Source: a virus. From it: a stretch of DNA of 13,848 nt. Made by a program: the position numbers and the translations under genes. Under the pieces are notes generated by a model, which was given only the letters and a program-made list of their open reading frames with translations, was not told the DNA's origin and made no database searches. The DNA is taken from IMG/VR virus record IMGVR_UViG_3300045988_113164; one strand, 5' to 3'. Within the stretch, counting starts at the first letter, position 1, and each line of letters starts with the position of its first letter. Of this stretch, positions 614 to 13,848 are shown in pieces.

Positions 614-703
614 ATGAAAGAAACGATACAGATCATGATCATTGCGCTATTAGCGGTGCTACTTATCATAGCACCGCCTACGCTATATCTATTCGGTTTC
701 TGA
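614..703 (+). CDS. Possible 29-aa single-pass membrane peptide
   Basis: Read by hand: MKETIQIMIIALLAVLLIIAPPTLYLFGF. RBS GAAAGGA lies 9 nt upstream and overlaps the stop codon of the preceding gene. The ORF is too short for the supplied track and has a hydrophobic core. Confidence 0.35.
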   Translation: MKETIQIMIIALLAVLLIIAPPTLYLFGF

Positions 704-720
704 TGTTTCACATGAAACAT
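703..720. promoter_or_regulatory. 18-bp palindrome ATGTTTCA-CA-TGAAACAT, copy 1
   Basis: Perfect 8+2+8 inverted repeat. It starts on the last base of the TGA at 701-703 and ends 19 nt before the ATG of the terminal-protein candidate, directly 5' of its RBS. Confidence 0.75.
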
Positions 721-1336: not shown

Positions 1337-3370
1337 ATGATAGCAGATGTATATGCCTTTGACTATTCGATTTTTAAAAAAGCAGGAAATGTGAAAAGAA
1401 AGAGAGGTTCACGGAATAAGAAAAACTATAAAAATCTGGTTTGTGCTTTTGACATTGAAACAACCCGAATAAAAGAAATCGAGCAAGCCGTCATGTATAT
1501 CTGGCAATTTCAAGTTGACGAAAAAGTAACTGTGATAGGGAGAACATGGAGAGACTTCGACTACTTTATGAGGGCTATCGCATCTGACTTGGAAGATACG
1601 GAATATGTCGTTGTTTATGTTCATAACCTTTCTTTTGAGTTCCAGTTTCTTTCGGGAATCTATCCTTTTTCAAAGGAAGAGGTTTTCGCTTTGGACAAAC
1701 GAAAAGTTTGCAAGTGTGAAATGTTTGAGCATTTTGAGTTCCGATGCTCCTACATTCAAACAAACATGAGTTTACAGACATTTACAGACAAAATGAACGT
1801 TAAGCATAAGAAACTTTCCGGCGATCTTGATTATAACGTGGAGCGTTATTCATATACACCGCTAAGTGACGAAGAATTTGCATATTGTATTAACGATGTG
1901 CAAGGTCTTGTAGAAGCGATTAAGACGGAAATGAAAAATGATGGCGATACATTGTATACAATCCCGCTTACCTCAACCGGATACGTTCGGCGTGATGTGA
2001 AAAACGCACTTGAAGGCAACCGTTGGATTATGGGAATCCAGCCGGATTTCGATGTCTATCAAGTAGCAAGAGAATCGTTCCGCGGCGGCAACACACATGC
2101 GAACCGATTCTATGCCGGATGGATTCTTGAGGGTGTCCATTCCGCCGATCGTTCCTCAAGTTATCCGGGTGTTCAGTGCAACAGAGCCTATCCGGTCACC
2201 CGATTTCACAAGATTTCAAAACCCGTTCCTGATGCAGGTCAGATCATTGATCTAATGAAAAGAAGAGAAAAAGCAATTTTGATGAGGGTATCATTCAAGG
2301 GAGTGTCCTTAAATGATTACTCTTGGGGGTGTCCCTATCTGGCAAAAGACAAGTGCAGAACAATTGTAAATGGAGTATTCGATAATGGGAGAATATTAAG
2401 CGCAGATTACTTGGAGACTTCCATTACGGACGTGGATTTAAGAATCATAGTCGAAGAGTATCATATTGACGAAATTGTACCGATTGAAGTTTATACCGCG
2501 CGCTATGGAAAACTCCCCGCCGCTATGATTGAAACCATTTGTCTGTATTATAAGAAGAAAACAGAGTTGAAGGACGTAGAAGGGCAGGAATATTTTTATA
2601 TGAAAAGTAAAAATAAGCTTAACTCTATCTATGGCATGACAGCGCAAGACCCTGTCAAAGAGTCAATATTGTATCAAGATGAAGAATTTACAATTGATAC
2701 GTCAAAGACGAAAAAAGAACTATTGGAAGAGTTCATGAAACGGGCGTTCATTCCTTACACCTGGGGTGTTTGGTGTACCGCATGGGCACGGTATGAACTG
2801 GAACGGGGTATGCGTATGGTGACAGATCAAGGCGGAACGTTTATTTACTGTGACACGGATTCTATCAAATATTTAGGTGATGTCGATTTCACAATCTACA
2901 ATAACGAAAAAATAAAGTTGTCTAAAGAGAACGGCGCATGGGCTACAGACCCTCAAGGTGTGGATCATTACATGGAAGTTTATGAACAGGAGAAAGACGC
3001 TGATCGTTTCATTACATGGGGAGCGAAAAAGTACGCATACGAAGCTGACGGGAAATTAAAGATCACGGTAGCAGGAGTGCCGAAAAAAGCTGGGGCGGAA
3101 GAATTAAAGAGGAAAGGTGGCTTGGATGTGTTAAAGCCCGGTTTTGTATTCAGCGATTGCGGCAAACTGGAAACTGTTTACAACGACAAACCGGAAATAA
3201 CAAAATATAAAAATAAGGACGGCAAGACGATAGAAATAACGAAAAATGTTGTGCTTAGACCAACGACATATGCAGTAGGCATAACGAAGGAATATGAAGA
3301 TATTTTACAAGATGCTCTATTGTATAATCAATCAGTAAAAATCTTAAAAGGAACAAATTTATTATCTTGA
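1337..3370 (+). CDS. Family-B DNA polymerase, protein-primed type (677 aa)
   Basis: Motifs read in the translation: ExoI FDIETT, ExoII HNLSFEFQFL, ExoIII YCINDVQGL, motif A DRSSSYPG (Dx2SxYP), motif B KNKLNSIYGM, motif C YCDTDS and KxY GAKKYAY. Each parallels the phi29 gp2 motif: HNLKFD, YIKNDIQ, DVNSLYP, KLMLNSLYG and YCDTDS. Confidence 0.95.
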   Translation: MIADVYAFDYSIFKKAGNVKRKRGSRNKKNYKNLVCAFDIETTRIKEIEQAVMYIWQFQVDEKVTVIGRTWRDFDYFMRAIASDLEDTEYVVVYVHNLSFEFQFLSGIYPFSKEEVFALDKRKVCKCEMFEHFEFRCSYIQTNMSLQTFTDKMNVKHKKLSGDLDYNVERYSYTPLSDEEFAYCINDVQGLVEAIKTEMKNDGDTLYTIPLTSTGYVRRDVKNALEGNRWIMGIQPDFDVYQVARESFRGGNTHANRFYAGWILEGVHSADRSSSYPGVQCNRAYPVTRFHKISKPVPDAGQIIDLMKRREKAILMRVSFKGVSLNDYSWGCPYLAKDKCRTIVNGVFDNGRILSADYLETSITDVDLRIIVEEYHIDEIVPIEVYTARYGKLPAAMIETICLYYKKKTELKDVEGQEYFYMKSKNKLNSIYGMTAQDPVKESILYQDEEFTIDTSKTKKELLEEFMKRAFIPYTWGVWCTAWARYELERGMRMVTDQGGTFIYCDTDSIKYLGDVDFTIYNNEKIKLSKENGAWATDPQGVDHYMEVYEQEKDADRFITWGAKKYAYEADGKLKITVAGVPKKAGAEELKRKGGLDVLKPGFVFSDCGKLETVYNDKPEITKYKNKDGKTIEITKNVVLRPTTYAVGITKEYEDILQDALLYNQSVKILKGTNLLS

Positions 3371-3436
3371 CAGGAATTAAAAAGAGAGTTATCATAGATA
3401 TGCAACAAAGAACAATACAAAGAAAGGAGCAGAAAC

Positions 3437-3690: not shown

Positions 3691-4038
3691 ATGAAAATCA
3701 TTCGAAGCAAAAGTGAAAAGATTACAGTAAAAGAGAAATATCTCATGTCAATGAATCCCGAGATTCGTAGAATGAGAGATGCTGAGGGGATGAATGTTCC
3801 GGTGCTTAACTGGATGATCTATTCCGAAAAGGACAAAGAGGGAAATGAACAGATCCTTCTTTCCATCCTGTCTGAGGATAATGTTGCATATGCAACAAAC
3901 AGCCGGACTTTCATCGAAGCATTTTCCGTACTCTGTGACATGTTCGCAGACAGCGGGGAAGAGATTGCCGCTATTAAGGTAATTGGTGGACAGTCAAAAA
4001 CAGGACGGCACTATATCACCTGTGCCTATGCTGAGTAA
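3691..4038 (+). CDS. Hypothetical early protein (115 aa), a positional candidate for an SSB or DNA-binding protein
   Basis: GGAG at 3679-3682 sits 8 nt before ATG 3691. ATG 3685, used by the track, is only 2 nt from the SD. The ORF is followed by an intrinsic terminator. The functional suggestion rests on position only. Confidence 0.6.
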   Translation: MKIIRSKSEKITVKEKYLMSMNPEIRRMRDAEGMNVPVLNWMIYSEKDKEGNEQILLSILSEDNVAYATNSRTFIEAFSVLCDMFADSGEEIAAIKVIGGQSKTGRHYITCAYAE

Positions 4039-4083: not shown

Positions 4084-4113
4084 AAAGCCCCGTTCCGTTA
4101 TCGGGGCTTTTTT
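4084..4113 (+). terminator. Rho-independent terminator ending the early replication operon
   Basis: Stem AAAGCCCCG (4084-4092) pairs with CGGGGCTTT (4102-4110). The loop is 9 nt. The T-run at 4108-4113 is TTTTTT. Confidence 0.8.
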
Positions 4114-4129
4114 CCATAGAGGTGATTAT

Positions 4130-5170
4130 ATGAAGGAAAAGAACATTTATGACCGTAATGGTTTCATCAATATACCGGCTATTTATAACATACCAGTACC
4201 GTTCATATTTATTGTAGGCGGTCGGGGAACTGGAAAAACGTATGGTGTCTGCAAATTCGCAATCGAGAGAAAGATCAAATTCGCACTGATGAGACGAACA
4301 CAAACACAGTCTGATCTGATTTCCAAACCGGAATTTTCACCACTCAAACCCGTCCTGAGCGATATGAACCGGATGTTCAAGGCCGTTTCATTGACAAAAC
4401 AGAACAGTGCGTTTTATGAAACGGATATGGAAGGAACGATTATTTCACCAGAGCCGTTCTGTTATTCACTTGCACTGTCAACCATTTCGAATATGCGTGG
4501 TTTTGATGCCAGTGATATCTCCCTCATCTTCTATGATGAGTTTATCGCAGAAGCGCACGAACGACCATTGAAAAATGAAGCAGAAGCCTTCTTTAACTGT
4601 TACGAAACAATTAACCGTAACCGTGAATTGAAAGGGATTGCACCTGTCAAAGTGATCTGTGCGGCCAACAGCAATAACATGGCAAATGAACTCTTTATAT
4701 CGTTGGGACTGGTGCTGAGAGCGGAAAAGATGTATCAGAACGGAACATCTATCTGGATAGATAAAGAACGGGGTCTAGCACTGATTATTTGTCAAGACAG
4801 CCCGGTTTCCGAAGCGAAAGAAAAAACAGCATTGTACAATTTGGTGTCAAGGGATTCTGACTTTTATCAGATGTCATTAAAGAACGTGTTCACGAAAGAC
4901 AGAGCGGATAACATCGGCAGTAGAAACATCAAGGAGTTTAAACCATTAGTCCATGTGGGCGAAATGTATATCTATCGACACAAGTCACGACAGGAGTACT
5001 ACGTCACCTCATTTAAGTCAGGAGTATTCAAAGAGAACTACACCATGAGCGAAAATGATAAAGTGCGTTTCCGCTTGAAATATCGCTACCTGTGGATTGC
5101 TTTCCTATCACGCTCCTTGTATCTTGAGAACTACATCATCCAAGTTCTTTTTACAAAATGTTTCATGTGA
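4130..5170 (+). CDS. DNA encapsidation (packaging) ATPase, phi29 gp16-like (346 aa)
   Basis: Walker A FIVGGRGTGKTY parallels gp16 FVIGARGIGKSY. FALMRRT parallels FIYVRRY. Walker B LIFYDEFI parallels IVFDEFI. NRNRELKGIAPVKVICAANS parallels RNRERVRCICLSNA. Confidence 0.9.
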   Translation: MKEKNIYDRNGFINIPAIYNIPVPFIFIVGGRGTGKTYGVCKFAIERKIKFALMRRTQTQSDLISKPEFSPLKPVLSDMNRMFKAVSLTKQNSAFYETDMEGTIISPEPFCYSLALSTISNMRGFDASDISLIFYDEFIAEAHERPLKNEAEAFFNCYETINRNRELKGIAPVKVICAANSNNMANELFISLGLVLRAEKMYQNGTSIWIDKERGLALIICQDSPVSEAKEKTALYNLVSRDSDFYQMSLKNVFTKDRADNIGSRNIKEFKPLVHVGEMYIYRHKSRQEYYVTSFKSGVFKENYTMSENDKVRFRLKYRYLWIAFLSRSLYLENYIIQVLFTKCFM

Positions 5171-5175
5171 AACAT
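5158..5175. promoter_or_regulatory. 18-bp palindrome, copy 2 (centre TG, the reverse complement of copies 1 and 3)
   Basis: ATGTTTCA-TG-TGAAACAT. It spans the ATPase stop codon (5168-5170) and ends 1 nt before the -35 hexamer of the following promoter. Confidence 0.75.
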
Positions 5176-5176
5176 C

Positions 5177-5206
5177 TTGCTAAAAAAGAGGGATGCGTGT
5201 TATAAT
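5177..5206 (+). promoter_or_regulatory. Promoter with extended -10: TTGCTA, 18-nt spacer, TGtTATAAT
   Basis: -35 TTGCTA at 5177-5182. TG at 5198-5199. -10 TATAAT at 5201-5206. It lies in the 171-bp non-coding gap between the ATPase gene and the late genes. Confidence 0.65.
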
Positions 5207-5212
5207 TATAGG

Positions 5213-5317
5213 TGAAAAGGAAGTGCTAGAAACAATCCCGGAAGGATGCACATGTTCTATGTTTCGGAACAGGAATCTTTTTCGACAGGCGGTATATATA
5301 CAACCGCCTGTTTTATT
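5213..5317 (+). ncRNA. Candidate short transcript or leader (~105 nt) running from the promoter to an intrinsic terminator
   Basis: The predicted start is about 5212-5214. Possible hairpins are ATCC/GGAT (5235-5248) and TGTTC/GAACA. The 5' GAAAAG could pair with CTTTTTC at about 5276-5283. The transcript would end at the 5285-5317 terminator. No convincing RBS or start lies inside: ATG 5246 directly abuts GGAAGG with no spacer. Confidence 0.35.
5285..5317 (+). terminator. Intrinsic terminator or attenuator upstream of the late operon
   Basis: A 9-bp stem, ACAGGCGGT (5285-5293) pairing with ACCGCCTGT (5303-5311). The loop is 9 nt and is followed by TTTATT. Confidence 0.65.
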
Positions 5318-5341: not shown

Positions 5342-5539
5342 ATGGATGCAAACACTATAATGACGTTGGTGCAGAATTTAGGTTTTCCTGTCATTTGTTG
5401 CGGGGCGCTGTATTGGCGTATGCTGAAAGAGTCCGACAATCATAAGGCAGAAATGGAGAAAGTTACTGACGCATTAAACAACAACACACAGGCACTCATC
5501 CGATTGGAAGAATCATTGAAAGGAGAAAAAGAAAAATGA
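5342..5539 (+). CDS. Small membrane protein (65 aa), YvrJ-like, possible holin-type function
   Basis: RBS AGAGAGG precedes ATG 5342. Sequence MDANTIMTLVQNLGFPVICCGALYWRML has one hydrophobic helix with a GFP motif, then a charged coiled-coil tail. This is the pattern I recall for the YvrJ family. The track start at 5246 would translate through the terminator hairpin. Confidence 0.6.
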   Translation: MDANTIMTLVQNLGFPVICCGALYWRMLKESDNHKAEMEKVTDALNNNTQALIRLEESLKGEKEK

Positions 5540-5874
5540 AACAGGAAGACATTCTAGCATTAGCAAAGGCAGGATTCACAAGGGATCAGATTGTTGCGCT
5601 TGCAGGTTTACAGGCCGCCCCGGTACAGCAGACCGCCCCGGTACAGCAGACCGCTCCGGTACAGCAGACCGCCCCGGTACAGCAGGCCGCTCCGGTACAG
5701 CAGGCCGCTCCTGCACAGCCTGGAACATCTGGCGACCCGGTTTTGGATGCCCTGTTGGGGCTTCGCGAAGATATGAAAAAACAGGCGTTGCTGTTTTCAT
5801 CTCAGCCGCCAACACAGCAGGAAACAAGCGATGATATTCTTGCGTCCATCATTAACCCGAAAGGAGAAAAATAA
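5536..5874 (+). CDS. Scaffolding protein candidate (112 aa) with a tandem APVQQ(T/A) repeat
   Basis: ATGA start/stop overlap with the upstream gene. It lies immediately upstream of the capsid gene, as phi29 gp7 does. It is small and acidic with helical ends around a PQ-rich repeat. Confidence 0.6.
   Translation: MKQEDILALAKAGFTRDQIVALAGLQAAPVQQTAPVQQTAPVQQTAPVQQAAPVQQAAPAQPGTSGDPVLDALLGLREDMKKQALLFSSQPPTQQETSDDILASIINPKGEK
5617..5724 (+). repeat. 18-bp tandem repeat, five good copies plus one degenerate copy (GCCCCGGTACAGCAGACC)
   Basis: Units at 5617, 5635, 5653, 5671 and 5689, with a degenerate unit at 5707. They encode APVQQT/APVQQA in frame. Confidence 0.95.
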
Positions 5875-5876
5875 AA

Positions 5877-7100
5877 ATGGTGAATGATTTATCTTTTGAC
5901 CAGCTGTCAACCGTGCTGACAGCGATTACGAATCAGGCAACCGGTGTGAATAATGTCGCGCCGATTGATACTGCGTCTTTTGTTAGCGTTGCGCAGATGG
6001 CGTTGAAAACTGGCTACGATCCCTTGACTACTGCAATTTCACAGGTGCTGTCAAGGACAATCTTTTCTGTCAGACCCTACTCACGAAAATTCAAAGGTTT
6101 GAATGTATCGAATCAGCGCTATGGAAATCATGTTCGTAAACTGCTGACTATTGATAAGCCCTTCGAGGATGATGACAGGTTAAAGCTGGTAGACGGGGAG
6201 TCTATTGATCAGTACCGGGTGAACAAACCGAAAGTTTTACAGACAAACTTCTACGGGGCAAACGTCTATCAGAAGTCAGTGACGATTTACAAGGATCAGT
6301 TAGACTGTGCTTTCTCATCACCGGATGAGTTTGCATCGTTCATTTCTATGGTAATGCAGAACGCTTCGGATATGATTGAACAGGCTCATGAGGAAACCGC
6401 GAGAGCAACAATCAACAATCTGATTTCCGGTATTTATGCGGCTGAGACGACAAGCGGCACCGCTAATACCATGGCGAAATCAAATGGTGGTAAACGCGCA
6501 ATCAATCTGCTGACCTTGTATAACCAGACGAACGGTGGCGCATTAGGGGTCAACGATATTTTCAAGGCGCAAAACTTTGAAAGCTTTGTAAAATTTGCGT
6601 TTTCAACGATTAACACGCTCGCAGATTTAATGACAGACAGAAACACCTTATTCTCTTCCCAGCTGACGAACTACACGGTTATTCGGCATACGCCGAAAGA
6701 CAGGATGAAATTTTATCTCTACACAGATCTGGTCAATAAGATCAATTCAGAAGTATATTCGACCGTATTCAATCCGGACTTCCTTAAGCTTGTTGATTTC
6801 GAAAGAGTCAATTTCTGGCAGTCAGCTTTGAATCCATCTCAGATTCAAAACAAACCTGTGATGTTAAACAAAGATGGAACTTTGAACACTGTCGGAAATA
6901 CAGATATCGGAAATGTATTCGGTGTTCTTTTTGATGAGGAGGCGGCGGGTTACACAACCGTAAATGAATGGTCACAGCCCAGTCCGTTTAATGCCCGTGG
7001 CGGATACTACAACCAGTTCTGGCACTTTACTGACCGTTACTGGAATGATTTCACGGAAAATGCGATTGTATTCTACGTTGCCAATCCATCTGATGAATAA
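5877..7100 (+). CDS. Major capsid protein, phi29 gp8-like HK97 fold (407 aa)
   Basis: [27 protein letters not shown] parallels gp8 [38 protein letters not shown] parallels gp8 RGLYWNYYYHVW. The position after the scaffold gene fits. Confidence 0.85.
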   Translation: [407 protein letters not shown]

Positions 7101-7117
7101 TGTTTCACATGAAACAT
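7100..7117. promoter_or_regulatory. 18-bp palindrome, copy 3 (identical to copy 1)
   Basis: ATGTTTCA-CA-TGAAACAT. It starts on the last base of the capsid TAA and ends 17 nt before the tail-knob ATG, directly 5' of its RBS. Confidence 0.75.
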
Positions 7118-7134: not shown

Positions 7135-8532
7135 ATGGCATTATCAGTTACTCTTTATACATTCTCCAAACGGCTCAACAGTACAAAAAATCCCCCCGCT
7201 GAGGGGGGATTCACTGTACAAGCCGTCCTAAAAGACAACACCTCTATCATAAGACCGGAATTAGAAGTTGTTGAAAATGTGACTGCTTATAACTATGCCT
7301 ATATTCCCGCCTTCTATCGGTATTATTTCGTTCAAGATGTGATCTGGGAAAAAGGTGTGTGGCGCATTGTACTCTCAGAAGATGTTCTTGCCACCTATAA
7401 AACAGTGATCGGAGACACAACCGCCTATATCCTGCGATGCGCAACGTTCCAAGACCCGACAATTATTGATAGCTTATATCCTACGGTCGTTGGTGTAGAA
7501 AGCACTTCAAGCGTGGGTTCTTGGGACTGGGTGAACCCCGACTTGGATAAAGGAACTTATGTGGTAGGTCTGGTTAACAACAATGATACGGTCGCAGGCG
7601 GCGTTGCATACTACGCATTAACAGGTACAGAAATGGCGGCTTTTCGCGCATACATGCTAGGTTCTATCCAGTCTTGGGATCAGATCACCGATTTTGCGGG
7701 GGATGTAGCGAAAGCATTCATTGATCCATTTCAATACGTGGTTTCCTGCTTATGGTTTCCAGTTCCCGTCCCCGCTGATGAGGGAGCAACACCACTCGGC
7801 TTCGGGTTTTGGTCTACACCGGAATTAACAGGGCACAAGCTGATTTCCACCACGTCTACACAGACGTTGACACTGAAAAGACCAAAACGCCCTCACAATG
7901 AGGACTTGGTTTATTTGCGCTACCCGCCATTTGCAGAATACTACGCAGTAGCCGACCCATGGGGCGTGATCCCGCTGGACGGGAATAAAATTGTTGATGA
8001 TGTTCTTTTCACAGCAACATTCGACTTTGTGACCGGAAAAGGAATCCTGCGAATCGAAGCGAAGGTTGGCGAGGATACCCGGAACTATAGACTTTTGTAT
8101 GAAGGACAGGCGCAAGTGGGTGTGACTATACAGCTTTCCAATGTTACGTTCAACTACGAAAAATCGTTTTCCGGTCTGTCTGGCGCACTATCAGCGGCGG
8201 CGGGTGGACTCATTTCCGGTATCGCAAGTGCTTTTTCCGGTTCGGGAATTGCTTCATCCATGGAAGCGAGCAACAGCATTTTGAATACGACCGGAACAAA
8301 CAGCGGTATGGCGGCGATCGGGTTGGGTCACTTTGTTGCACTAAAAGCAAACTATTTTTCACAGGTCGCCTATGACAAAGCCGACAACGGCTCACCACTC
8401 TGTCAGCACAGGAAAATTTCTGATTGCACGGGCTATGTGAAAGTGGAAAACGGAGCAATCAATTTTTCCGCGCTCGAACCGGAAAAGAAAATGGTGAAAG
8501 AATTTTTAGAAGGAGGATTTTATTATGAGTGA
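7135..8532 (+). CDS. Tail knob / distal tail tube protein, phi29 gp9-like (465 aa)
   Basis: N-terminal YNYAYIPAFYRYYFVQDV...SEDVLATY parallels gp9 YIMFQNADYGNKWFYAFVTEL...EIDVLQTW. The Gly/Ser/Ala-rich hydrophobic segment GLSGALSAAAGGLISGIASAFSGSGIASS parallels the gp9 loop GGGISAGASAAGGSALGMASS. C-terminal GYVKVENGAINFS...KEFLEGGFYYE parallels gp9 NYVQTKDCFISG...RTIFDNGITLWH. Confidence 0.8.
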   Translation: MALSVTLYTFSKRLNSTKNPPAEGGFTVQAVLKDNTSIIRPELEVVENVTAYNYAYIPAFYRYYFVQDVIWEKGVWRIVLSEDVLATYKTVIGDTTAYILRCATFQDPTIIDSLYPTVVGVESTSSVGSWDWVNPDLDKGTYVVGLVNNNDTVAGGVAYYALTGTEMAAFRAYMLGSIQSWDQITDFAGDVAKAFIDPFQYVVSCLWFPVPVPADEGATPLGFGFWSTPELTGHKLISTTSTQTLTLKRPKRPHNEDLVYLRYPPFAEYYAVADPWGVIPLDGNKIVDDVLFTATFDFVTGKGILRIEAKVGEDTRNYRLLYEGQAQVGVTIQLSNVTFNYEKSFSGLSGALSAAAGGLISGIASAFSGSGIASSMEASNSILNTTGTNSGMAAIGLGHFVALKANYFSQVAYDKADNGSPLCQHRKISDCTGYVKVENGAINFSALEPEKKMVKEFLEGGFYYE

Positions 8533-8704
8533 GATTAAAATGTATTCATTACCGACAACCGTAGCTGTAGCCATTCTGGTGATTGGCGGGAATTATGGAA
8601 ATGGAACTGACCGTATTAAGCGGTTGAAAGCAGATGGTTTTGATCCTGTGCGGGTGCAGAAATGTGTAAATGATCTTCTTCCTATAGTCAAGAGGTATCG
8701 TTAA
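8525..8704 (+). CDS. 59-aa protein with one CW_7-like (Cpl-7-type) peptidoglycan-binding motif; not in the supplied ORF track
   Basis: Hand translation: MSEIKMYSLPTTVAVAILVIGGNYGNGTDRIKRLKADGFDPVRVQKCVNDLLPIVKRYR. GNYGNGTDRIKRLKADGFDPVRVQKCVNDLL matches the CW_7 repeat pattern as I recall it (G.WGNG.ER...L.AAGYDY.AVQ..VN.LL). RBS AAGGAGG lies 8 nt upstream. The ORF overlaps both neighbours, by ATGAGTGA upstream and TAATG downstream. Confidence 0.65.
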   Translation: MSEIKMYSLPTTVAVAILVIGGNYGNGTDRIKRLKADGFDPVRVQKCVNDLLPIVKRYR

Positions 8705-9786: not shown

Positions 9787-10693
9787 CGGCATACCCTTTT
9801 CGGCAGATTATATCAATGCGGCTAACTCGGTGATTTCACCGAGTACCGTCCATTGCCGGAATACCAGCTTATCTCTTTATTTTCAACGATATCTGTTACA
9901 GAAAGCAATGAGTGTCTTCAAATGGGAAATGCCGCCGCTATGGGCGAAGAACTATACCCTCTATACGCTGTACTGCTGGGGCTTTTTCGCTGTAGTCAAC
10001 ACAGACAGATACGGCGTGATCCCGCAGGCCTGTGGTCTGCGGGGGTATGATGTAATGTATCAGCCGACCAACGCGATCATCACAAACCCACTCCTATCTG
10101 GGACACTAGAACCGCGGATTGGTTTGCAGTGCGAATTGGTTCGGCTACAGCCGGATTACGGCGGCATCATGGATATTGTTACCTATTATGCAGATATGTT
10201 AGCCCTGTGTGCGGAATCAGTAGGAATGAATCTTGTGAACAGTAAACTTGCTTATGTGTTCGCCGCAGAAAATAAAGCAATGGCGGAAACATTCAAAAAG
10301 CTGTATGATCAGATTGCCGCTGGAAATGTGGCGGCTGTGATTGACAAACAGTTATTCCGGGACGACGGCAAGGCGAACTGGCAGATGTTCAACCAGAACG
10401 TAGGTCAGAACTACATTGCGGATAGAGTGCTTTCGGATATGCGGAAAATCGAAGCTATGTTCTGCACGGACATAGGCATCCCGAATGCGAACACGGACAA
10501 AAAGGAACGCTTAATCACGGATGAGGTCAACGCAAATAAAGTTGAAACCCACTCCAAATGCGATTTATGGTTGGAAGAGCTGAAAGAATCCTGTGAGAAA
10601 GTCCGGGAGATGTTTGGAATCAAACTGGATGTTAATTGGAGATATAAAGGGGGCGAGGAAAATGGCAACATTGAGTCTACTGGGACTGTATAA
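9779..10693 (+). CDS. Portal / upper collar connector, phi29 gp10-like (304 aa)
   Basis: [23 protein letters not shown] parallels gp10 [41 protein letters not shown] parallels ACEKINELYGLNVKVKFRY. The size matches (309 aa in phi29). Confidence 0.9.
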   Translation: [304 protein letters not shown]

Positions 10694-11501
10694 CCATGAC
10701 GAATCCCTTCTGAATGGTTTGATTGAAAATTTACCGAACAAATTCGGAATACCGTCCAGTTACGAGGATTCCTACTACACCGATGTAACCATTGACCCTC
10801 AGACCGTAACAGAAAATCTGCTGGTCGAATGTGCTGAGTTTGAAATTTTGTATTCAGACTCCGACGCATTAAAGAGGATCATCACTATATGGTCTGCAAA
10901 AGAGAAACCCGTGTGGCAGAAAATGTTTAACACGATCTGCTATAAGTACAATCCAATCTGGAACAAAGATGGAAAAACTACGTGGACGGAACAGCAGACC
11001 ACAAGCGGAACTAAAACGGAAATGGAAAAAGGAACAAAAACAACCAGCGAGGACGGTTCAATCACTGATGATTATACCTCAACTAGCACCACGACAAATA
11101 CAACAACTGGTGCCGGCACAAATACCCGCGCTGGAAATGATGAAACAACCGGAAAGGTCAGTGCTTATGACAGCACGGATTTTCAGAACAGGGACAAGAC
11201 AAACAGTACCTCTAGTGAAAATAGCACAACGGAAAGCAACGAAGAGTTCACCGGAAAAGGAAACGTCACAAACAAAGGGAAGAAAACAACTACAAACGCA
11301 GGAGATGAAAAACATGATGTTTCACGTGAAACAAATGACAGTAATACAGGTGAAACAACTCATGAGCAACGAGAAACGGGTAACATCGGTGTTACTATGA
11401 CTCAACAGATGATCACCGCGGAACGTGAAATTGCCATGTTCAATATCATTGATTTTATCATCAATGATTTTAAAGAGCGTTTCTGTTTACGGATTTATTA
11501 A
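10662..11501 (+). CDS. Lower collar protein, phi29 gp11-like (279 aa), with a Thr/Ser/Asn-rich central region
   Basis: The start is reassigned to ATG 10662 (MATLSLLGLYNHDE), preceded by GGGGGCGAGGA. The track start at 10593 lies inside the portal gene. The position after the portal fits. YKYNPIWNKDG and the C-terminal GNIGVTMTQQMITAEREIAMFNIIDFIINDFKERFCLRIY match the lower-collar pattern as I recall it. Confidence 0.7.
   Translation: MATLSLLGLYNHDESLLNGLIENLPNKFGIPSSYEDSYYTDVTIDPQTVTENLLVECAEFEILYSDSDALKRIITIWSAKEKPVWQKMFNTICYKYNPIWNKDGKTTWTEQQTTSGTKTEMEKGTKTTSEDGSITDDYTSTSTTTNTTTGAGTNTRAGNDETTGKVSAYDSTDFQNRDKTNSTSSENSTTESNEEFTGKGNVTNKGKKTTTNAGDEKHDVSRETNDSNTGETTHEQRETGNIGVTMTQQMITAEREIAMFNIIDFIINDFKERFCLRIY
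11317..11334. promoter_or_regulatory. 18-bp palindrome, copy 4 (imperfect, intragenic)
   Basis: ATGTTTCA-CG-TGAAACAA. It matches the consensus arms at 15 of 16 positions, and the 14-nt core GTTTCACGTGAAAC is a perfect palindrome. It lies inside the lower-collar ORF. Confidence 0.5.
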
Positions 11502-13023: not shown

Positions 13024-13049
13024 AAAAGAGGGCTTATAGCCCTCTTTTT
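13024..13049. terminator. Bidirectional intrinsic terminator between the convergent late and right-early operons
   Basis: AAAAGAGGGCT (13024-13034), loop TAT, AGCCCTCTTTT (13038-13048). An A-run precedes it and a T-run follows, so it can act on both strands. It sits between the stops at 13021 (+) and 13048 (-). Confidence 0.8.
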
Positions 13050-13251
13050 AAATTAAGCATATGATTTTATCACCGTTCTTATGAAAGAAGATTTTGAAAT
13101 AATCTACTTCCATTTTCATATATGCGGAATTTTTTTCAAAACAGCCACTCACTGTATCTTGATAGATACTCTTGTTATTCATATCTGTTATCATAACCAC
13201 TGAACCGTTTTTCAGATTGCCACATGCTAATAATACATCTCTTAATGTCAT
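13048..13251 (-). CDS. Terminal small-protein family member (67 aa)
   Basis: MTLRDVLLACGNLKNGSVVMI..., preceded by RBS AAAGGAGA. It is a paralog of 13265-13450 and of both halves of 200-607. Confidence 0.7.
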   Translation of the reverse strand: MTLRDVLLACGNLKNGSVVMITDMNNKSIYQDTVSGCFEKNSAYMKMEVDYFKIFFHKNGDKIICLI

Positions 13252-13464: not shown

Positions 13465-13661
13465 CTATGCTTCTTCATTCTCCATTATAAATATAACTAA
13501 ACCAGCATCCTTCATATCAAACTTGTGAACCTTAAAATTTAATACTTCCTTTGGCATATAAAGATAACCACCTTCGTATATCAGCGTAGTTCCCTTATAA
13601 CACGTACTTCCGAGTTCAGTTTCCAACCAATGTACATATCCCGTAAATTTCTAATAGTCAT
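13465..13661 (-). pseudogene. Frameshifted member of the terminal small-protein family
   Basis: ATG at 13661 is preceded by AAGGAGGG. Frame 0 reads MTIRNLRDMYIGWKLNSEVRVIRELR and then stops at 13581-13583. The -1 frame continues KGTTLIYEGGYLYMPKEVLNFKVHKFDMKDAGLVIFIMENEEA to the stop at 13465-13467. Joined, they give about 65 aa that align with the paralogs. Confidence 0.6.
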
Positions 13662-13693
13662 TTCCTTGACCCTCCTTTTTATTTGTTAAATAA

Positions 13694-13722
13694 AGTATAG
13701 CATGAAATAACTATTTTGTCAA
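13694..13722 (-). promoter_or_regulatory. Right-end early promoter: TTGACA, 17-nt spacer, TGcTATACT
   Basis: On the minus strand, -35 TTGACA occupies 13717-13722, inside the ITR and mirroring 127-132. The spacer is 17 nt. An extended TG precedes the -10 TATACT at 13694-13699. The RBS and ATG at 13661 lie about 30 nt downstream. Confidence 0.75.
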
Positions 13723-13848
13723 CAACTATTTTATATTAACTAAAACTTGTGCTGTTAATAATTCCAGTGCATAGACGAGCGCATGTGGGAACTTTAACAC
13801 TTTACCACGTTAACGCGTTACCACTGTGATGTGCTAAAGTACTACCAC
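13715..13848. repeat. Right inverted terminal repeat (ITR-R), 134 bp
   Basis: Exact reverse complement of 1-134. Confidence 0.97.

Follow-up and report, generated by a model that had tools for sequence, protein, structure and literature searches.

The window, by which we mean the whole 13,848-bp stretch of DNA that was analysed, is a complete linear genome bounded by inverted terminal repeats (ITRs) of 137 nt (positions 1-137 and 13712-13848). A 29-aa open reading frame (ORF) with its TGA stop codon at 701-703 is followed by the gene of a putative terminal protein (ATG at 740), which precedes that of a family B DNA polymerase (1337-3370). The genome further encodes a phi29-type SSB (PF17427), a phi29-type packaging ATPase (4130-5170, stop codon TGA 5168-5170), a major capsid protein (stop codon TAA 7098-7100) with a 465-aa gene next to it (ATG 7135), an upper collar protein, a tail lysozyme and a beta-helix tail spike, with a 302-aa ORF (10593-11501) situated between upper collar and tail spike. 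Judged by this gene content and by its ITRs, the window virus is a small protein-primed podophage.

Inward-facing sigma-A promoters of consensus or near-consensus sequence are located one in each terminal repeat (127-155 and 13722-13694), so that early transcription would begin at each genome end from identical sequence, and a further consensus sigma-A promoter is found at 3367-3395. The late promoter, a sigma-A-type element on the plus strand (5177-5206; TTGCTA-18 nt-TATAAT with a TG extension) that is kept in relatives, drives the holin, scaffold, capsid and tail genes. Terminator-like hairpins are seen at 4092-4107 and, by direct reading of the sequence, at about 13025-13050. Non-coding DNA makes up only 5.8% of the genome, so that about 94% is coding sequence.

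A close public record exists only in the form of a 4.6-kb fragment from human faeces, named 'Bacteriophage sp.'. Among cultured phages, those nearest to the window virus are the Amedibacillus phages AD70P2/P3, classified as Guelinviridae, with identities of about 30% in the capsid protein and about 36% in the polymerase. As for the host, a polymerase search of 185k genomes yielded hints in the form of seven MAG contigs at no more than 49% polymerase identity, the bins of which are of mixed taxonomy, mostly Clostridia. Two local peculiarities of the genome may be recorded here. Six tandem 18-nt repeats at 5593-5736, within a 112-aa gene (5536-5874), encode Q-x-A-P-V-Q repeats, and relatives carry other repeat numbers and variants at this position. 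The right-most small ORF, on the minus strand at 13465-13662, lacks a proper start, while an ATG at 13661 with a good Shine-Dalgarno (SD) sequence opens a different frame that stops after about 26 codons; possible explanations are a frameshift, an error in sequencing, and the decay of a paralogue that belongs to the terminal small-gene family.

A recurrent palindrome with the sequence of chromosomal parS

An earlier note on this DNA had singled out a palindrome, ATGTTTCA-NN-TGAAACAT, and its four copies all lie where they had been placed, three of them exact (starting at 703, 5158 and 7100) and one with a single mismatch (11317). The 18-mer ATGTTTCACATGAAACAT occupies 703-720 and 7100-7117, its reverse complement ATGTTTCATGTGAAACAT 5158-5175, and ATGTTTCACGTGAAACAA is found at 11317-11334. 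That such a recurrence cannot be accidental, as had been argued, is borne out by the statistics: at up to three mismatches to the 18-bp motif, the window holds five matches compared with 0.14 expected, and none of 200 shuffled sequences reached five.

The consensus of 69 unique sites, collected from the window and its relatives, is A-TGTTTCACGTGAAACA-T, with every position of the 14-bp core GTTTCACGTGAAAC conserved at 81-100%. The canonical chromosomal parS, which is bound by dimers of ParB (Spo0J), reads TGTTNCACGTGAAACA in B. subtilis and in many other phyla, and mycobacterial parS reads GTTTCACGTGAAAC (PMC7022226). In terms of sequence, the palindrome is thus the canonical chromosomal parS, a site that had not been considered when the motif was compared with the LexA, CodY and cre consensus sequences and left unrecognised. 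Scored against perfect parS, four window sites have zero or one mismatch, compared with 0.10 expected. This comparison also reverses the original ranking of the copies, as the supposedly imperfect one (site 4, 11318-11333) is a perfect match to the consensus TGTTTCACGTGAAACA, while the three supposedly perfect ones each deviate by one central base: site 1 (704-719, TGTTTCACaTGAAACA), site 2 (5159-5174, TGTTTCAtGTGAAACA) and site 3 (7101-7116, again TGTTTCACaTGAAACA). The fifth match noted above (3881-3898, three mismatches) differs from parS at four of 16 positions, is not conserved and probably arose by chance.

Site 4 accordingly has a CG centre, and the three other copies have CA or TG. Our literature search found no published affinity values for the CACATG/CATGTG centre variants; as such variants also occur in the Bacillus phages Claudi and Goe4 and in the Enterococcus phage Athos, they are probably tolerated. 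We also considered restriction-site avoidance and CpG deamination as causes of the CA and TG centres and rejected both, the observed/expected ratio of CpG in the window being 1.05 and neither ACGT nor CACGTG being notably depleted. A stoperator-like element and a terminator were likewise discarded, the former as the site is symmetric and the latter as it has no T-run. Among the features expected of a chromosomal-type parS, a 16-bp palindrome matching TGTTNCACGTGAAACA, a frequency above chance and conservation as sequence rather than as structure are found here.

Placement of the sites and selection on duplex DNA

Site 1 lies within the 36-nt gap between the stop codon of the 29-aa ORF (701-703) and the ATG at 740, with an SD sequence 4 nt downstream, and the same slot is filled in relatives of clade A, the window's own clade, and of clade B. 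Site 2 overlaps the last codons and the stop codon of the packaging ATPase gene, with 12 of its 16 core bases inside the gene, and adjoins the -35 box of the 5177 promoter, as had been pointed out, at a distance of 1 nt counted from the 18-mer or 2 nt counted from the 16-bp core. The arrangement of parS followed by TTGCTA...TGTTATAAT is kept in clade A, where the distance from parS to the -35 box is fixed. Site 3 occupies the 34-nt gap between the stop codon of the major capsid gene (7098-7100) and the ATG of the 465-aa gene at 7135; this slot is kept in clades A and B and in the separate relative L045, and is taken by a different palindrome in L056 and L057. Site 4 lies in frame inside the 302-aa ORF, where it is decoded as D-V-S-R-E-T. 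Among 17 genomes, its mean column identity is 97%, compared with 88% in the flanks, which ranks it second of 241 sliding windows, and its conservation exceeds that of the flanks also at synonymous positions (four- and six-fold degenerate codons).

The description of all four copies as lying at cistron boundaries therefore fails for copy 4, which sits in frame within an ORF, and copy 2 is mostly contained in the ATPase gene. The accompanying details were accurate, namely the stop codons touched by copies 1 to 3 (TGA 701-703, TGA 5168-5170 and TAA 7098-7100) and the SD regions (AAAGGAG) after copies 1 and 3, at 19 and 17 nt from the ATGs at 740 and 7135, respectively. With 5.8% non-coding DNA, the probability that at least three of four site centres fall into non-coding sequence is 7e-4, a generous value, since copy 2 was scored as non-coding although its centre (5166.5) is inside the ATPase ORF. 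The clustering at boundaries is best explained as tolerance: in a genome that is about 94% coding, and with a motif that contains TGA when read in one of its three frames, gaps between a stop codon and an SD sequence are the cheapest places for a 16-bp palindrome, and the stop codon itself can form part of the motif flank (TAA-TGTTTCA, TGA-TGTTTCA). As tolerance accounts for the pattern, translation need not be invoked.

It had also been proposed that the motif acts as RNA, forming a 7-bp hairpin 5' of the SD sequence that would serve as a translational operator, a processing site or a stabiliser of mRNA ends. An SD sequence does follow 3-6 nt downstream of copies 1 and 3 and of many copies in relatives, and folding yields the hairpin at each of the four window sites. 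An RNA operator would, however, be expected to keep its pairing by compensatory change, and of the 54 arm pairs that depart from the consensus among the 69 unique sites, none is compensated, which argues against a hairpin; the outer motif positions, moreover, vary asymmetrically. By itself the hairpin is weak (-6 to -8 kcal/mol), and together with its flanks it reaches z-scores of -0.6 to -3.2, those of copies 3 and 4 being unremarkable. Some copies are located inside ORFs (window 11318 and the polymerase gene of clade B) and others upstream of a promoter, where useful transcription may be missing, and phage families that differ in SD context nevertheless conserve the sequence. The uncompensated changes, the weak folding, positions unsuited to an operator and the conservation of site 4 together indicate that selection acts on the sequence of duplex DNA. 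We therefore consider an RNA element very improbable as the primary function, while a secondary effect at the RNA level may exist besides the role of the DNA.

Occurrence of parS in relatives and in other phages

The earlier note had called for a search for conservation and position of the motif in related genomes. Among 61 relatives gathered via their polymerases (38-96% identity), 30 carry the motif two to six times per genome, often in the same slots (L001-L028, L030 and L045; polymerase identity 44-96%), and the same scan found it absent from the other 31. In clade B, copies are present in the polymerase gene of all members, another position lies directly upstream of a terminator, and a site at the ATPase/holin junction has no promoter-like sequence next to it. 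The number of sites per slot also varies: in the gap between the capsid gene and the next gene, which contains one copy in the window, L016 has three tandem parS-like copies with 26-27 bp spacing (6783-6853), which shows that site number per slot is evolutionarily fluid. Separately, single parS-like matches (AGTTTCACGTGAAACA and near variants) were seen in the polymerase gene of relatives otherwise free of parS (L187 at 2298, L188 at 2676, L189 at 2256, L050 at 2673 and L183 at 8620). In L188, L189 and L050 the match lies at an identical distance from where the polymerase match begins. These single matches may stem from conservation of the encoded peptide, without being functional sites.

We further counted sites with at most one mismatch to parS in a sample of 14 cultured protein-primed podophages. 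Phages of spore-forming hosts gave four in phi29, two each in Nf and B103, one each in Claudi, Goe4 and HM2, seven in phiCPV4 and none in GA-1. Those of other hosts gave none in Cp-1, C1, 44AHJD, CSA13 and astrithr, and two in the Enterococcus phage Athos. Sites are thus present in seven of eight phages of spore-formers, compared with one of six others (Fisher p=0.026), a difference that weakens to p=0.08 when close relatives are collapsed. The two sites of Athos (L319; 1252 and 4788), whose host does not sporulate, include one with the CACATG centre of the window and one perfect site in the gap upstream of the late genes. As Athos has sites without a sporulating host and GA-1 has none, entrapment of the phage genome in spores cannot be the sole use of these sites.

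In the cultured Clostridium perfringens phage phiCPV4 (Guelinviridae; L184, NC_018083), all seven sites are intergenic (4812, 4838, 7846, 7871, 9949, 11824 and 11849), and six are grouped into three pairs with a spacing of about 25 bp; the paper describing this genome makes no mention of parS copies (PMC3362512). Like the window virus, phiCPV4 is a small protein-primed podophage, in its case of a gut Firmicute, and its sites are placed, in a manner we liken to that of the window, exclusively in gaps between converging or consecutive cistrons. It differs from the window in having seven copies, mostly paired and all CG-centred. In IMG/VR, among the matches listed for perfect parS, at least 27 of at least 120 loci hold two or more copies, compared with two of 120 for a control palindrome. 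Many of these multi-copy loci, again among the matches listed, are PolB (family B DNA polymerase) podophage contigs of 11-18 kb, for example L068, L082 and L109, which have four to six copies each within one mismatch.

A host factor as the probable binding partner

The dyad symmetry had originally been taken to suit a dimeric DNA-binding regulator, a possible analogue of phi29 p4; on this view, a phage-encoded protein would use the palindrome as an operator to coordinate early and late expression. The first half of the idea agrees with the data, as the site is indeed dyad-symmetric and its arms are conserved as sequence (none of the 54 changes being compensated). A phage-encoded binder is another matter. 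One copy does adjoin the late promoter, and several small early proteins have no known function; the sequence is, however, identical to a ubiquitous host site, three of the four copies lie away from promoters, and the motif also occurs in unrelated families (Salasmaviridae and Guelinviridae) that share no small regulator. Domain searches of the phage proteins, small ones included, detected neither a ParB nor any other DNA-binding domain, and no p4 homologue was detected in the window. Of the candidates that had been put forward, the 83-aa protein and the family of terminal small proteins are confined to clade A, while the motif reaches clades at 44-55% polymerase identity.

We also compared all window ORFs with 67 related genomes by tblastn and blastp, and found none whose presence follows that of the motif through all three clades that carry it, with the single exception of p59. 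This protein is present in 18 of 18 members of clade A, 11 of 11 of clade B and L045, and in only one of the 31 motif-free relatives. Its 59 residues (window 8525-8704) comprise a hydrophobic N-terminal stretch and one CW_7 repeat (PF08230, E=2e-14), by which it is a predicted membrane-anchored, peptidoglycan-binding CW_7 protein, probably a marker of host range and not a DNA binder. That only a cell-wall module tracks the motif points to a trait linked to the host, and the occurrence of the same sequence in unrelated phage families makes the host factor ParB the parsimonious binder. An operator for a phage-encoded regulator accordingly strikes us as highly unlikely.

Discussion

Chromosomal ParABS centromeres consist of parS sites (TGTTNCACGTGAAACA) near oriC, and the 16-bp palindrome of the window is identical to them, with ParB dimers as the expected binder of both. 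The window sites differ in being viral, spread over a 13.8-kb linear genome that is capped by terminal protein and encodes neither parA nor parB, so that their function would be a parasitic use of the host system. We think it likely that the palindromes are copies of the host parS through which the phage hijacks chromosomal ParB (Spo0J) for the segregation of its genome or for its entrapment in spores. ParB dimers are known to nucleate at parS and to spread from there as CTP-dependent clamps (PMC12704722). On the phage, dimers of the host protein would nucleate on the four sites, about one per 3.5 kb, and then spread over the 13.8-kb linear genome, which the host segregation machinery would handle as if it were an origin region. 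In an outcome like that of phi29, the infecting genome would be carried into the forespore and survive in the spore; in a non-sporulating cell, the unintegrated phage genome would be partitioned to daughter cells. We infer binding of host ParB to the four sites and coupling to host segregation from the identity and distribution of the motif, and among the observations that count against this, three window copies deviate from the central CG and half of the relatives are devoid of parS.

The precedent is phi29, which is reported to have five parS sites through which host Spo0J brings the infecting genome into the prespore (Meijer et al. 2005, via PMC2731898), while Spo0A boxes simultaneously shut down the lytic cycle (PMC2731898). 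Scanned in the same way as the window, phi29 yields four copies of TGTTTCACGTGGAACA and one site with three mismatches, compared with 0.18 expected. phi29 (with Nf and B103) and the window virus are alike in being protein-primed linear podophages without a ParB of their own, and both phi29 and the window carry four to five dispersed copies of chromosomal parS. In phi29, the copy at 17243 directly follows the stop codon of the packaging ATPase gene, and its counterpart in the window, at 5159, lies at the end of the same gene. Their lineages differ, the window polymerase being only about 25% identical to those of Bacillus picoviruses, and so does the layout: the phi29 sites read TGTTTCACGTGGAACA and mostly lie inside genes, whereas those of the window have perfect arms, a varying centre and, in three of four cases, a position at a gene junction.

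The window thus has in common with the phi29 strategy that several parS sites are carried by the genome of a virulent protein-primed phage. A second element of that strategy, Spo0A boxes at early and late promoters, is not seen: boxes of the sequence TGTCGAA are not enriched in the window (one, compared with 2.6 expected), and none is found at the ITRs or early promoters. The sole exact box (5281-5287, minus strand) is found within the first late gene, some 70 nt downstream from the late promoter. As Spo0A boxes are not enriched and a phage of a non-sporulating host has the sites, spore entrapment is uncertain as the outcome in the window virus. The p4 sites of phi29 resemble the window palindrome in their dyad symmetry and the proximity of a late promoter, but the annotated p4 site belongs to the A2c-A3 promoter region and needs the phage protein p4, while the window motif is dispersed throughout the genome.

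Palindromic partition sites on phage genomes are also familiar from the linear plasmid-prophage N15 and from the plasmid/prophage P1, and the centromere sites of N15 are dispersed. These elements, however, have their own ParA/ParB proteins (SopAB) and element-specific sequences, whereas the window carries the host's own site.

Given a host protein as binder, it is conceivable that ParB is recruited for regulation and not for segregation. One possibility would be a copy-number timer, with ParB at site 2 holding the late genes off until replication titrates it; in another, hundreds of replicating genomes would soak up ParB like a sponge, disturbing segregation of the host chromosome or entry into sporulation. 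Such roles would fit the constant distance between site 2 and the -35 box throughout clade A, the perfect site ahead of the late genes of Athos, whose host does not sporulate, and the lack of enrichment of Spo0A boxes, the known repression device of phi29. Only one of the four sites is situated beside a promoter, however, and the junction site of clade B between the ATPase and holin genes has no promoter-like sequence in its neighbourhood; moreover, chromosomal ParB is not known for strong local repression. We therefore regard regulation as an unlikely primary purpose, although it could be speculated that ParB on site 2 influences late transcription.

Host parS on a protein-primed phage is a phenomenon of an already known kind, exemplified by phi29; what is new is its presence in an uncultured gut lineage. 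The use of host ParB through parS would thereby be extended from soil Bacillus phages to abundant, uncultured protein-primed podophages of 12-14 kb from the human gut, and to phiCPV4. If such phages enter spores or are partitioned without integration, nominally virulent gut phages could persist in, and be transmitted with, spore-forming Clostridia, which would have a bearing on phage-host dynamics, on faecal transplant material and on phage therapy against clostridia. The parS count would then provide a simple sequence marker for this lifestyle.

Not all relatives without parS lack recurrent palindromes. L056 and L057 (polymerase identity 42%) contain 11 and six copies, respectively, of a 14-bp palindrome, TTCAGT(CA/TG)ACTGAA, also written TTCAGTYRACTGAA. 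We found no match to it in the literature and, in the IMG/VR scan, essentially only single chance matches; the ORFs unique to L056 showed no DNA-binding Pfam domain. The copies of L056 are located at 405-466, 1308, 3027, 4011, 5893, 7073, 8525, 10963 and 12914, three of them in tandem with 24-bp spacing, and those of L057 between 301 and 8178. Some copies in these two genomes lie in the polymerase gene, and one occupies the junction between the capsid gene and the next gene, which is the slot of window site 3. It looks as if parS had been functionally replaced here with the site of another protein. One could go further and suppose that the copying of the host centromere is a general, evolvable trait of small protein-primed podophages that reaches beyond spore entrapment, for instance as a late-gene switch or as a ParB sponge, a rather doubtful proposition at present; if it is true, the exchange in L056 and L057 implies a second centromere-like protein-DNA pair in gut Firmicutes or their phages.
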